Assembly: GCF_988243305.1 (NCBI RefSeq)
Contig: NZ_OZ547136.1
Length of the DNA: 64,000 nucleotides
Direction: 5' to 3' (one strand)
Of this stretch, positions 30,740 through 37,306 are shown piece after piece. The position numbers and the translations under genes were made by a program. The number at the start of each line of letters is the position of its first letter. Position 1 is the first letter of the stretch. A model generated the notes under the pieces. The model was not told the origin of the DNA, searched no databases, and saw only the letters and a program-made list of their open reading frames with translations.

Positions 30740-30902
30740 CGGGGCCGCGTCATCTCGGCGTTGCCCGATAAATTCTTTTCTACGTATAATAACCAGAATG
30801 AACGTGTAAAACACCATAGTATTCAGAACTATAAACATCGAAACCTGCCATATTGACCAGAATAAATGACCTTATTTTTACTGAAATTTAAGGAGAACAC
30901 CG

Positions 30903-33900
30903 TTGGAAGTAGAAATGTGGGATGGTGGCTTACAAGAACAGGAAGTATTGGCTATCGAGAAAATAAAAGCTGCTTTTTCAGTCAACGTATCTAAGCCTGA
31001 CAAGCCTTTCCGTAGCGGTTCAATTAGTGAGCAGCTAAAAAGCTATGGTTTTATCGGCAATGAAATGTTCCCTTGGAAAGGTTATGCAGGTTTTCGATTT
31101 GTTGAGGCAAAAAAAGAGGGGGAATTCGATTTAGTTATTGTAACACACTGCAACGTGATCATTGTTGAACTGAAAGACTGGAACCATCAGCCTGTAACCG
31201 CACGCGGAGATACTTGGTTTAAAGGCGATAAGAACATGGGGCGCTCGCCAGTAAGCGTGACTCGTAGCAAAAAATTCATGCTGGACAAAAAACTCAAGCG
31301 TCTGGTAGACCGTTTTACGAACAAAGGCTATATCCCGATTGTTCATTTTTTTGTTGTGATGACCGGCAATGCAGATTTCAGCGCGCTGCCGGAGGAACAA
31401 CGGCGCCATACGATCTCGTTAAAAGATTTCCTGAAGTTTGCCGATCGCGGGAGCTTCAATAACTATTTCAAACCGCACCCAGCTACCAAGGTTCTTAACA
31501 AGGATTTCCATCTTTTCGATGATTTGTTCCTAGGGCCTCAGACGGCACCAAAAGCCTTGAGAGTTAATGGCTATGAAGCTAATGATATGATTTTCGAACA
31601 TCCTAAAAAGGTGTATCGAGAATATCTGGCAAAATCTGAGATATCAACGAACAGCGAAGCGCTACTCAGAGTATGGAATTTTAGAAATATAACGGGAACG
31701 AAAGCGAATACCCCGGAAGGACGAGCTCAGATTGTTTCACGTGAGCGCGAAGTGTTACAGCACATCAATCACCAGAATCGTGACCTGTATAACCACTGTC
31801 TCAGGTCTTTGACGAGTTTTCAGAAAGACGAGGTGACGGCCGAGTATAGCGAAGTCTACGAAGTTCCGCCGGGTCATGTCCGGTTTAATGAGTTTATCGG
31901 AAAATATGGTAAGAACTTTTCTGATATGGACCGCTTGAATGTGGTGAAACTGCTCATTGCAAAGTTTAGTGATCTCCATGAGATGAAAATTGCGCACAGG
32001 GATGTCGCCGATCACAGTCTGTGGATTTCACCTTCAAAAGAAGTTGCTCTTTCGAACTTTATTTCGGCTTACCACCAGCCAGCCGGAACGGTTGGCGATT
32101 ACCGTAAGCTTTTATCCGTAGGTGCAGTCCACGTAAAAGACATGCTTGATAAGGGCGAGCTTACGCCTTTTCAGCAAGATGTTCATACTCTGGGCCTTGT
32201 CGCCTGGCACTTATTTAGCGGTATGCGCATGTCGCCAAAGAGTCTGGAGAAAGTACAGGACAACATGCTAAACAGCCAGCACTGGTATTCATCTGTATTA
32301 CGGGATGCCGTTGCCGCAAAATTCACTTCTGCAACAGAATTCTTTGATGCCCTGAAACAAGCCGAACCTGCTGGCAAGGATATTCCAACATTTGATGATA
32401 CTGAGCTTGACCCTTACCGACATGCTATCAATCACGCTCGTCAATACCCGGAAGACGATGGCTTTCAGTTTCAGGTCGAAACAGTCGACAAAGAAGTCTA
32501 TATCTCGAAAGGAAGGCTCGTGAAGGCTTGGCTGAATGTTGGGGGACAGGGATACGATCCGTCAATTAATTTCCAGGTTCTGAAGTTTTTAAAGCAGGTT
32601 GAGCGGCTTTCTTCAGTTAAAACAACGTATCTACCTCAAATTCGTGAATTCGGTATCGCATCAAAATCATCAAGCCTATATATGGTCACGGATCAGGTAC
32701 AGGGAGAAACCTGGGATAAAATAGCGGTCCCCGATGATGAAAAAATCGACCTCATTGGTAAGTTTGTCGCCGCCGTTGAGCACTTACATGGTCTGGGTGT
32801 TTCTCACGGGGACATCCACCCTGGCAATGTGATATTTGAGACACAGAGCCGTTTGCTTTTTCTCATCGATATCCCCGATTTTTCACCGTCCGGTGACGAA
32901 CCTAAAAATCACAGTTACAGCCCTGAATACATTGATAATTGTACTTCTTTTGAACGTGACAACTATGCAGTGATGAAGATGTCCTGCGAGTTGCTAGGCA
33001 TGTCATGGGGGCTGGAATCAGACATTTATCCGACAATCGCGAATGCTATCCGAGCAGAGCTGGAAGATCCGGTTTTTGGGTTTAAGGATTTAGGCCGCTT
33101 TAAAAAAGCGATAGATAGTAATGACCTGGTGCCAGAACAAGACCTGATAGAGATTACTGCAGGAAATGCCGATGAAATAATCTCTATTCTGCCTGATAAC
33201 GGGCATCTGTATGTCAAAGTTAAGTCAAATCCTAAAGCGCCAGCTGAAGTAAATGTGACTTTCTCTGGGATTGGTGGCAGTTTTACTGCGGTGTTCAACA
33301 AAGATCAGAAGACGCTGGTTCATGGCTTCAGGCCACGGGCTCGCGTCACAATTCGTAAGCAAGATATTGATGAAAGCCAGTTCGAAATTGATACTGGCAT
33401 CAAGATTATTCCCGGCAGTCCGCAGGATCTGTCGGCGTTGACAGTATTGCTTAATGAAGAAGAATCTTTTGCGCGGGCAATCGAGTTGATTGCCGCAACT
33501 GAAGATGTTCAGGTACAAGAGCCACTTACGCTTCAGCTAAAAGATACCTTTGCAAGGCTTGATAAGCAGACGCTTGAACCTTCTTTAAGAGAAGTGCTGG
33601 AAATCCCAACAGTGAAACTGTGGCGCGCCATTCTGGATACTGAAACAGAATCTTATCCAAACATTGAAATCAGCGGTGAAGTGGTCCCGGTTGCAGATGC
33701 TCATGGAGAGCTTCTTCTCCCTTACTCTGCTGATGTTGATCCACTCGGTGCTTTCAGAAGTAGTGATGAAGTCGAAGCCTTACAGGTCGATCAGGAAGGT
33801 GTTGAGCGATTTATTGGTGAAGTGTCACTTAAGAAGTCAGAGCTCAAAGAGATTCGTCTTGTCAAAGTTAGTTCAGCAGCCTTCAAGCTGAAGGATTCTG

Positions 33901-35873: not shown

Positions 35874-37306
35874 TATCTGATAACAAAGTTACCTATCATG
35901 AGGTTGACTTCCTGCTGCCAGCACAGAGGTTTAACATTCAGTTTTCCTATGTTTCCCAGAAGGGGCTGCCATTTATCCGGGAGTTTGTGCTGAGACTTGT
36001 TCATGTAGCTTCGATGAGCAAAGCACAAATAGCAACCTATTTCGGCCTGACCCACCGTGAGACAGAGGAGGCGATTTCCGATCTTGTGCAGCGTGGCGAA
36101 TTGACGCTCTCCTCAGACGGCAGACTGGCCTTAACAGACAAATCAAATGGCTATTTTTCAGAGGTTGGCGAGATACCGCATCTTTCAACTATTCAGGACA
36201 GTGGCTGTACCTTATCCTTTGATTTAGCCACATTTAGTTGCTTCAGCAACCAGGCTTTTCAGGACCACTGGAGGGGAGGGGTAACATTAAAGGTTGATGA
36301 CAACAACATTTCTCAAAGTGAGAAACTGGTTGAGAAGCACTTTCAATACCAGTTTAATCAAATCCTGGATAAAGGTTACCTGTCTCACCTGCAGGTTCAG
36401 GTCGGAAAAGAACAACCTTCTATCTATACCGTTAATTCTGTTAATAAGCTGCGGCAAATACCACTCCGTTTAACAACGGAATTTAAAATGGATAGCGATG
36501 GTAAGGCTGTCGAGCGTGAAGACTATGAACAGTTAAATAGTTCGGAATGTGTTCATGAGTTAATGGCTGTTGAGATAGCCAGGTTATCACGGCATAACAA
36601 TACCATGAGTATTTTTAAGGCCATGCAATCCATTAACGATGACCTTACGCTTAAGCTGTTTGACTCTAAAACGAATCGACTTAATCCGTTGTTTATCAAA
36701 GATATGCAAGCACTGGAAGAATACTCGTCCTCAGGCAGAACGACTTTTTTAGGTCCGGTTTATTCTAAAAACAACTGGGAAAAGCTGCAGAAAGCTCTGG
36801 CACCAGCGCTCAATCAGCGTATCAGAGATAAAACTGATTATGGAGGTAGCCCGTTCATCTGGGTGGCACCATCAGATCCCTACTGGTCAAAAAGCATTCG
36901 ATTTATCTCAAGCCTGAGCAATTTTCTTAGCAAGTCGGCTACGAAGGATAAGCAGCTGTATAAACCGGTGCTGTACGTACCTGTCCGGGATGCAGCTGAT
37001 GCTCGGGTTGCCAGACAGTGGAAGTATGAACTTGGGCAATTCCATGAGTACGCTAAAGGACTAGTTGAGGGGCTGTTAGATGGTAATGTTGAGATCCTTC
37101 ATCTTGAGGATGAGTTATCTGCCGTTATCTATCATATTTCTCAACCCGAAATATTGCCTGTAACGATGCCACTGGGCTTTATCACAACGAACAAAGAAAC
37201 GGTTAAGATTATTGGTACTCTGGTTACTGAATATATCAAAGGCACCACTGGTTTTGATAAGTTTCATGACTGTGGCGCAATTTCGGCAATGATTAAGAAA
37301 GGTTGA
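35870..37306 (+). CDS. 478-aa partner protein, N-terminal winged-helix-like domain, remainder unassigned
   Basis: Its ATG overlaps the upstream stop (ATGA), implying translational coupling. [40 protein letters not shown] resembles a wHTH. No other motif recognised. Confidence 0.8.

Follow-up and report, generated by a model that had tools for sequence, protein, structure and literature searches.

Mokosh type I is a two-gene anti-phage system in which MkoA joins a Ser/Thr-kinase domain to a COG1112/Upf1-like SF1 helicase, and an adjacent, co-oriented mkoB gene encodes an HTH protein with a PLD-superfamily domain, published as a 'PLD nuclease' with a catalytic HxK(x)4D motif. In the H10407-type (SG202; PADLOC profiles PDLC03920 and PDLC03922), MkoA comprises 1215 aa without a NERD domain, and the wHTH-bearing MkoB comprises 602 aa with a Pfam PLDc_2 domain and two HxK(x)4D motifs (HKD at 380 and 566). 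This type I system shows abortive infection behaviour, the trigger being a 128-aa SECphi27 protein. The SEC470-type (PDLC03921 and PDLC03923) is represented by SG199 of E. coli SEC470 (IMG genes 2720391838 and 2720391839), which was cloned with its native upstream DNA, blocks phages and is recorded as verified (Millman et al. 2022; 'Type I, Verified' in their Table S8); the authors label its MkoB 'HTH' only. Mokosh type II (MkoC; E. coli YjhR-like) also combines a Upf1-like COG1112 helicase with a PLD-superfamily domain, but in one polypeptide with an active PLD and without kinase or NERD. Mutations of the Walker A motif and of the PLD active site abolish Mokosh defence, according to the published text. 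A 2025 study could not purify Mokosh type I, and we found neither a solved Mokosh structure nor a mechanistic paper on type I. An evolutionary link has been proposed between Mokosh and the eukaryotic piRNA pathway, in which a Upf1-family helicase is likewise paired with a PLD-superfamily protein (MOV10L1/Upf1 with PLD6, Zucchini).

Identity and gene structure of the operon

The window analysed here is a 64,000-nt stretch of DNA (contig NZ_OZ547136.1 of RefSeq assembly GCF_988243305.1). It carries two co-oriented ORFs, 30903-35873 (+, 1656 codons, TTG start) and 35870-37306 (+, 478 codons), and the stop codon of the first overlaps the start codon of the second (ATGA, 35870-35873). The operon and the site upstream of it are annotated as follows.

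30761..30790, + strand: putative promoter-like site 5' of mkoA, TTGCCC, 18-nt spacer, TATAAT (10/12 consensus matches)
30903..35873, + strand: mkoA, Mokosh type I helicase-kinase protein (PADLOC MkoA, SG199 identity, RefSeq annotation)
35870..37306, + strand: mkoB, 478 aa, RefSeq WP_000622487.1 'hypothetical protein' (PADLOC MkoB, SG199 identity)

The operon is very probably a Mokosh type I anti-phage operon, mkoA-mkoB, and an allele of the SEC470-type SG199. Both components match curated Mokosh type I profile HMMs end to end: the 1656-aa protein aligns with PADLOC MkoA PDLC03921 (E=0, 2212 bits; residues 1-1652 on profile positions 1-1603 of 1607), and the 478-aa protein with MkoB PDLC03923 (E=1.9e-151, 503 bits; residues 3-472 on positions 4-452 of 454). 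Comparison with the first 399 aa of each SG199 protein, the sole part compared, gave 92% identity for MkoA and 98% for MkoB; over this part only allelic changes distinguish the two operons, mostly at MkoA residues ~20-200. The two operons also agree in gene order, in their upstream region and in the lengths of their proteins (1652/1656 and 478 aa), the start of the SG199 insert being DNA that matches the window at ~30640.

The sequence-only reading had recognised an anti-phage operon of two genes, located in an island with integrase, AlpA and YfjI, and an architecture of NERD, pseudokinase, kinase and Upf1-like helicase plus a winged-helix partner, and in this it was correct. It erred in stating that the operon matches no named system, a view to be abandoned, in its own terms, should both genes give confident matches to one, as they do here. 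The system is already named, modelled in PADLOC and DefenseFinder, and was experimentally verified in 2022; it is not new. Public annotation (RefSeq and other sources) gives no system name ('AAA domain-containing protein', 'hypothetical protein') and neither protein has an NCBIfam equivalog match, both of which would fit a previously undescribed defence system. The full-length matches to the curated MkoA and MkoB models, the near-identity to verified SG199 over the part compared, and the presence of NERD among the domains given for Mokosh type I in a 2023 review leave that proposal virtually no probability. The experiment called for in the earlier reading had, in effect, been carried out on the orthologue SG199, cloned and verified as described above.

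The helicase and Ser/Thr-kinase domains of Mokosh type I are both found in MkoA, the adjacent co-oriented mkoB encodes an HTH protein, and structure prediction places a PLD-superfamily domain in MkoB at the fold level. The catalytic HxK(x)4D of the published 'PLD nuclease' is absent. This absence agrees with the label of the SG199 MkoB; since the verified founder is likewise 'HTH' and not 'HTH-PLD', the family as defined by its authors and by PADLOC includes an HKD-less subtype.

A Shine-Dalgarno sequence, AAGGAG (30890-30895, +), lies 7 nt 5' of the TTG at 30903 and 19 nt 5' of the ATG at 30915, which is the mkoA start in RefSeq and IMG (1652 aa, WP_001333439.1; 1656 aa from the TTG). Approximately 20 of 25 MkoA homologues begin with M-[E/D]-x-x-x-W, in agreement with the TTG start chosen by the sequence-only reading, and TTG numbering is used here throughout. 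The ORFs, the AAGGAG-TTG start and the ATGA overlap of that reading were all recovered, and each MkoA motif it quoted lies at the residue assigned to it: D76/E89/K91, HRD 365-367, SNF 384, HGD 635-637 and LIDIPDF 654 in the N-terminal half, and GPPGTGK1100T, SQSHEAVN 1124, DEAA 1349, GDHMQLPP 1373, QYRM 1430, DSYQGKE 1567 and NVAMSRA 1600 in the helicase. The 11-residue segment quoted from MkoB begins at residue 50. The promoter-like site at 30761..30790 falls within the upstream DNA that was cloned with SG199 as native promoter region (Millman et al.), and consensus promoter sites in the region showed no enrichment over shuffles; we infer a promoter role for it.

Domain architecture of MkoA and MkoB

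Five parts make up the single MkoA chain, in this order: a nuclease-like NERD (PD-D/ExK) domain, then a pseudokinase and a kinase, a beta-rich linker and a Upf1-like SF1 helicase. The domains of both proteins are located as follows.

31056..31409, + strand: NERD / PD-(D/E)xK nuclease-like domain of MkoA, aa ~52-169, with D76, E89 and K91 (Pfam PF08378, local NERD HMM)
31527..32381, + strand: kinase-fold domain 1, predicted pseudokinase, aa ~209-493 (motif conservation, fold match)
32412..33116, + strand: kinase-fold domain 2 with complete catalytic motif set, aa ~504-738 (Pfam Pkinase, invariant residues)
33135..34031, + strand: beta-rich middle region that separates kinase 2 from the helicase, aa ~745-1043, without family assignment (model)
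34116..35750, + strand: Upf1/DNA2-like SF1 helicase core, aa 1072-1616, with Walker A K1100 and DEAA 1349 (Pfam, PDB matches)
35966..36154, + strand: winged helix-turn-helix of MkoB, aa ~33-95
36587..37303, + strand: predicted PLD-like fold of MkoB without HKD motif, aa ~240-478; E408 invariant, H422 nearly invariant

The NERD domain was detected by Pfam PF08378 on residues 57-139 (31.5 bits; cut-off 22.1) and by a local NERD HMM on residues 52-169. Its D/E/K triad (D72/E85/K87 if numbered from the ATG) does not vary among 26 homologues, the most distant of them at 35% identity. Kinase-fold domain 1 retains an invariant H-R-D but lacks the Asn of the catalytic loop and the Asp of DFG, which reads SNF, and has an invariant Arg in place of the VAIK Lys, bearing out its earlier reading as a probable pseudokinase. 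Kinase-fold domain 2, by contrast, appears catalytically competent, as had also been proposed: Pfam Pkinase matches residues 581-661 (41.1 bits; cut-off 31.7), and K541, H635-G-D637, N642, D656 and D659 are invariant in the 26 homologues. An AlphaFold2 model of residues 1-1060 (pLDDT 80.7) contains two kinase folds, and its top Foldseek matches are tandem-kinase structures, namely EGFR-KDD and the JAK pseudokinase-kinase pair. The middle region was modelled with pLDDT values mostly of 80-90, except for a disordered stretch at 862-896; it is conserved in all NERD-type MkoA loci, and its C-terminal part, from residue 882, is common to the H10407-type MkoA profile. The helicase matches Pfam AAA_11 (1.1e-37) and AAA_12 (5.1e-42), and a PDB sequence search identified Upf1/Nam7 (7e-30), DNA2, IGHMBP2 and Sen1 as the closest solved structures.

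In the structural model, MkoB is a winged-helix protein with a predicted PLD-like fold at its C-terminus, from which the HxK(x)4D active site has been lost. No H-x-K tripeptide occurs anywhere in the 478 residues and no Pfam PLDc match was obtained, in contrast to the H10407 MkoB. The folds closest to the C-terminal domain include the known non-enzymatic PLD-like domains of FAM83 and TrmB. No match was found by hhalign between the MkoB alignment and the H10407 MkoB taken as one sequence; a profile-profile comparison on a more diverse sequence set matched the two over the wHTH region at the N-terminus (residues 5-126, E 4.7e-6) but not over the C-terminal domain, so that the PLD relationship of this domain comes from structure prediction only. 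The MkoB profile returned no relatives in a search of PDB sequences. Among 97 family representatives, E408 is present in all and H422 in 83; judging from this conservation, the two residues may form a non-canonical catalytic or ligand-binding site. The segment G405-N-V-E408 was considered as a mutated HxK, with N for H and E for K, and rejected in that form, because N406 is variable and E408 invariant among the 97.

Relationship to other defence systems

The H10407-type operon shares with the window operon its two-gene organization: a protein with kinase and Upf1-like helicase is encoded first and an MkoB with a wHTH second. Homology extends over the helicase and the region preceding it (435 bits for the window MkoA against PDLC03920) and over the MkoB N-termini (E 1e-13 and 4.7e-6); the H10407-type differs in the MkoA length, the missing NERD and the intact PLD motifs given above. 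The PADLOC profile of type II MkoC matches the C-terminal half of the window helicase only (122 bits, MkoA residues 1341-1639). With two genes in place of a single helicase-PLD polypeptide, the locus does not conform to type II; MkoA contains no canonical HxK(x)4D, and its one relaxed HxKxxxx[D/E] match is at residue 233 in the kinase-1 region. In comparison with the piRNA pathway, the PLD-like domain of the window subtype lacks the catalytic motif, and kinase and NERD have no counterpart there.

Nhi and Nhi-like proteins unite a nuclease-related domain, listed as NERD for Nhi-like proteins in the 2023 review, with a Upf1-like SF1 helicase in one chain, and offer the best functional analogy for the NERD and helicase parts of MkoA. 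Nhi is, however, a single gene without kinase domains or MkoB partner, whereas the window operon has a pair of kinase folds and a conserved, obligate partner gene; this distinction is drawn from architecture. The N-terminal NERD and kinase-fold module, spanning MkoA residues 57-460, is homologous to PglW (BREX type 2/Pgl) and MAD6 (PADLOC PglW 4e-27, NCBIfam MAD6 2e-31, NCBIfam PglW 6e-24). Yet these matches are far below the respective cut-offs (PglW NF033442, 84 versus 990 bits, covering residues 57-441 only; MAD6, 109 versus 460 bits) and the C-terminal parts differ. The locus is thus not a BREX type 2 PglW locus; no BREX or MADS partner genes are nearby, the neighbours being YfjI, a YfjJ-like gene and pseudogenes.

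Candidate effector, proposed mechanism and distribution

In a scan of GTDB genomes, all 12 NERD-type MkoA loci whose partner could be read had an HKD-less MkoB, and at 11 NERD-less loci the partner bore either one HKD motif or two. In four loci from actinobacteria (L008, L012, L013 and L017), an HKD-less MkoB-like partner goes with an MkoA in which no NERD was detectable; L008 is cut at a contig end, and ORF calls in these high-GC genomes are uncertain. A strict one-to-one rule linking the presence of NERD to the absence of HKD was discarded on account of these exceptions, which indicate that HKD loss is not strictly tied to NERD gain. The overall pattern nevertheless suggests that NERD has replaced PLD as the nuclease in the SEC470-type. 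It is quite possible, if somewhat short of probable, that an effector swap has taken place, in which the MkoB PLD would be a pseudo-enzyme kept as sensor or adaptor, and NERD at the MkoA N-terminus would cleave under the control of the JAK-like pseudokinase-kinase pair.

The mechanism that we favour, tentatively and with slightly less than even confidence in it as a whole, places motor and nuclease on the same chain. An ATP-driven Upf1-like motor would engage phage-derived RNA or replication intermediates and so bring the NERD nuclease to them in cis. NERD would act as the effector, in the role taken by the active PLD in the H10407-type and in type II Mokosh, while the pseudokinase-kinase pair together with MkoB, through its nucleic-acid binding wHTH and pseudo-PLD, would form a sensing and gating module. 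The outcome would probably be abortive infection, as reported for the H10407-type.

It is unlikely that MkoB is itself the effector, with a non-canonical active site around E408 and H422 and with NERD serving as a nucleic-acid sensor or anchor and not as a nuclease. The conservation of these two residues, and the published description that puts the Mokosh nuclease function in the MkoB PLD, are consistent with such an arrangement, but the lack of any HxK or Pfam PLDc match, the non-enzymatic nature of FAM83 and TrmB among the nearest folds, and the strict conservation of the NERD catalytic triad argue against it. A third arrangement, in which phosphorylation by kinase 2 is the decisive output (cf. 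Stk2), the helicase is the sensor and the nuclease-like domains are dispensable, draws on the invariant K, HGD, N and D set of kinase 2, its matches to PD-T4-6 kinase defence profiles and the homology of the N-terminal NERD-kinase module with MAD6 and with PglW, the kinase of BREX type 2. We regard it as quite unlikely, for the invariant NERD triad argues for selection on nuclease chemistry, and PLD active-site mutation abolishes defence in other Mokosh systems. The contrast between NERD and PLD provides a clear mutational test of the Mokosh type I mechanism.

We found no paper that states an effector swap explicitly. Hints at it are the label 'HTH' for MkoB in the table of Millman et al. and the listing of NERD for Mokosh type I in the review.

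Of 5426 complete E. coli genomes, 352 carry the window-type (SEC470-type) operon and 6 the H10407-type. The subtype commonest in E. coli, with its NERD and HKD-less MkoB, does not fit the one-line description published for Mokosh type I, a kinase-helicase plus a PLD nuclease. In the 352 genomes, annotation of the operon goes no further than 'AAA domain-containing protein' and 'hypothetical protein'; with these RefSeq labels standing in about 6% of the complete E. coli genomes, readers who rely on annotation will go on rediscovering it. Outside E. coli, Hahella, Cupriavidus and Shewanella have likewise conserved mkoA and mkoB side by side, with Dnd, type IIG and type III R-M genes as neighbours. 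A non-defence role, such as RNA surveillance or upkeep of the integrative island, might be read from the similarity of the helicase to the eukaryotic RNA-quality-control helicases Upf1, Sen1 and IGHMBP2 and from the location in a mobile island with integrase, AlpA and YfjI. This role is very improbable, given that the orthologous operon is on record as a verified defence system and that the homologues in other genera lie among R-M and Dnd genes and not in similar islands. PADLOC gave no match on the neighbouring island genes. The decayed neighbour at 30395-30739 is, by RefSeq annotation, a frameshifted TOTE-system primase remnant.

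Identity of the operon as Mokosh type I

The operon comprises the large gene mkoA and its partner mkoB, with the following features:

30890-30895, Shine-Dalgarno sequence AAGGAG, 7 nt ahead of the TTG at 30903
30903-35873, + strand, mkoA ORF, 1656 codons, TTG start
35870-35873, ATGA stop/start overlap between mkoA and mkoB
35870-37306, + strand, mkoB ORF, 478 codons

In PADLOC-DB profile searches, MkoA matched the model PDLC03921 with E=0 and 2212 bits (residues 1-1652 on profile positions 1-1603 of 1607), and MkoB matched PDLC03923 with E=1.9e-151 and 503 bits (residues 3-472 on positions 4-452 of 454). 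These searches settle the identity of the gene pair as Mokosh type I, which is composed of MkoA and MkoB (Millman et al. 2022). The sequence-only reading had assigned the operon to the correct class, defence, and had placed both ORFs, the AAGGAG and the ATGA overlap correctly, each quoted motif being found at its assigned residue. Its claim of an undescribed system does not hold: both proteins match curated Mokosh type I models end to end, so that the PADLOC check it had suggested leads to a named system for both genes.

The operon is thus an already known, experimentally verified defence system. In the supplement of Millman et al. 2022, SG199 ('Mokosh type I', E. coli SEC470) is marked as verified among the tested constructs. 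The SG199 insert is 6737 bp long, its beginning matches the window at ~30640, and it encodes an MkoA of 1652 aa (N-terminus MWDGGLQEQEV) and an MkoB of 478 aa; identity to the window proteins is 92% for MkoA and 98% for MkoB, each compared over the first 399 residues. Cloning with native upstream DNA followed by phage challenge, as proposed from the sequence, had already been carried out on an allelic copy. The strain assignment of SG199 calls for caution. The RefSeq record NZ_CP007594.1, which is labelled E. coli SEC470, does not differ from ETEC H10407 (NC_017633.1) in length or match coordinates, and Table S8 of Millman et al. gives the name SEC470 to two IMG taxa and assigns a type I system to both.

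Of 5426 complete E. coli genomes, 352 carry the operon, in most cases with an identity of ≥99%. It looked unnamed because the annotation of these genomes goes no further than 'AAA domain-containing protein' for the one gene and 'hypothetical protein' for the other.

RefSeq and IMG place the mkoA start at ATG 30915, four codons downstream of the TTG. An M-[E/D]-x-x-x-W N-terminus is found in ~20 of 25 MkoA homologues, in agreement with the TTG. On the basis of this conserved N-terminus and the Shine-Dalgarno spacing, TTG 30903 is probably the better start.

Domain architecture of MkoA and MkoB

Pfam searches with MkoA yielded, above cut-off, NERD (residues 57-139) and Pkinase (best stretch 581-661), together with AAA_11 and AAA_12 (residues 1072-1616); the nearest solved structures of the helicase are Upf1/Nam7, DNA2, IGHMBP2 and Sen1. 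Conservation was assessed in an alignment of 26 homologues with identities down to 35%, in which the NERD D...E-x-K triad (D76, E89, K91) is invariant. The first kinase fold keeps H-R-D; it has neither the catalytic-loop Asn nor the DFG Asp, and Arg occupies the position of the VAIK Lys, so this domain is predicted to be a conserved pseudokinase. The second kinase fold retains an invariant set of Lys, H-G-D, Asn and Asp residues; a model in which the kinase provides the output is one rival to the mechanism that we favour below. An AlphaFold2 model of residues 1-1060 (mean pLDDT 80.7) gave tandem kinases as best structural matches (duplicated EGFR kinase, JAK pseudokinase-kinase), with numerous single kinases ranking next. 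Collectively, these data bear out the domains first read from the sequence. NERD had already been listed for Mokosh type I in a 2023 review. The N-terminus of PglW (BREX type 2) and MAD6 are both homologous to the NERD and kinase-1 module of MkoA, although scores are far under the PglW and MAD6 cut-offs.

For MkoB, a Pfam search over its 478 aa returned no significant family, and no sequence relatives were found in the PDB. In its AlphaFold2 model (30 homologues), residues ~240-478 are confident (pLDDT about 85-90) and the winged helix is moderate. Independently, nearly all Foldseek hits were structures of the PLD superfamily, although their E-values were modest. An H-x-K tripeptide is absent from the whole protein, consistent with which the table of Millman et al. 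2022 labels the SG199 MkoB 'HTH' and the other tested MkoBs 'HTH-PLD'. Clustering at 50% gives 377 representatives of the HKD-less MkoB family; among the 97 full-length ones there is no conserved HKD motif, whereas E408 is invariant and H422 occurs in 83. A second rival explanation is accordingly an MkoB with a non-canonical active site.

NERD and PLD across Mokosh type I

The other verified type I system, of H10407, differs in both proteins. Its MkoA (1215 aa) matches PDLC03920 and is without NERD, and its MkoB (602 aa) matches PDLC03922 and Pfam PLDc_2, with HxK(x)4D motifs at 380 and 566. We scanned GTDB genomes by helicase alignment and sorted 80 loci with local HMMs. A NERD-type MkoA was present in 15 of them, with hosts including Hahella, Cupriavidus, Shewanella, Ideonella, Caballeronia, Acinetobacter, Proteus, Rhizobium and Duganella. 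In all 12 NERD-type loci with a readable downstream gene the MkoB-like partner lacks HKD, whereas 11 NERD-less loci have an HKD-bearing partner (two motifs in 8, one in 3). Four loci from actinobacteria are exceptions to a strict rule: the partner is HKD-less, NERD was not detected, and some partners have long C-terminal extensions. Three loci from Streptomyces and Streptacidiphilus (L012, L013 and L017) have such extended HKD-less partners, with ORFs of about 1150-1560 aa; NERD is not detectable in their MkoA, the ORF calls being uncertain in these high-GC genomes. They may represent a further form of effector replacement.

This locus pattern suggests that NERD may have replaced PLD as the nuclease in the subtype of the window. 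The putative effector contrast between type I subtypes is the sole new angle here.

According to Millman et al. 2022, Walker A and PLD active-site mutants of Mokosh in general lose defence. For the H10407 system, the published mode of action is abortive infection, with a 128-aa SECphi27 protein as the trigger; type I Mokosh was not purifiable in a 2025 survey, and literature and PDB searches found no structural or mechanistic papers on type I. For the NERD-bearing subtype we tentatively favour a model in which the Upf1-like motor would engage phage RNA or replication intermediates, the NERD nuclease would act in cis as effector, and the pseudokinase-kinase pair and MkoB (wHTH plus pseudo-PLD) would gate it.

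Genomic surroundings

The operon is located in an integrative island with the order P4-type integrase, AlpA regulator, DUF3987/YfjI protein, YfjJ-like protein, decayed TOTE-system primase gene, mkoAB and pseudogenes. Features around it are:

20998-22130, DUF2726 protein gene, just left of the integrase
23519-25336, - strand, hypothetical protein ORF, 605 aa, adjoining the integrase of the island
30395-30730, archaeo-eukaryotic primase remnant (TOTE conflict system), directly upstream of mkoA
37303-37617, 104-codon ORF overlapping the mkoB stop, a pseudogene in RefSeq

The decayed conflict gene noticed upstream of mkoA in the sequence agrees with RefSeq, where the primase remnant is frameshifted and incomplete in strain 190693, whose sequence is identical here. 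Residues 53-104 of the 37303-37617 ORF match RsmI, a 16S rRNA methyltransferase, in its C-terminal part (NCBIfam, 2.9e-22); not being kept beside mkoB in other genera, this ORF is not part of the Mokosh system. Elsewhere, the gene pair adjoins different genes in each genus. In Hahella these are Dnd genes together with a type IIG R-M enzyme, and mkoA and mkoB overlap by 4 nt; in Shewanella the neighbour is a type III R-M system and the two genes abut; in Cupriavidus the neighbours are NucS-like and DUF5677 genes and the junction is an 11-nt gap. Tight spacing is common, not universal.

The 605-aa ORF had no match in Pfam or PADLOC; strain 190693 carries it in the same place, annotated as hypothetical. 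In that strain, dgcT and pgaA precede the same integrase, which shows that the island's left junction varies among strains. ARAGORN detected no tRNA or tmRNA genes in the 64-kb window. An IS3-family element is present in two copies (38219-39432 and 58187-59400; orfA 108 aa, orfB 296 aa). The copy at 38219-39432 directly borders an 'enterotoxin' ORF (39435-41012) of 525 aa, compared with 629 aa in strain 190693, which suggests that the insertion shortened it. In the core region 1-24000 (putA, putP, efe, phoH), the top-ranked full-coverage matches are ~97.4% identical, and identity reaches at least 99% in only 2 of 5,455 matching records; the Mokosh locus and downstream island (30853-62000) are 100% identical to many strains. 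A divergent backbone may thus carry a recently shared island.
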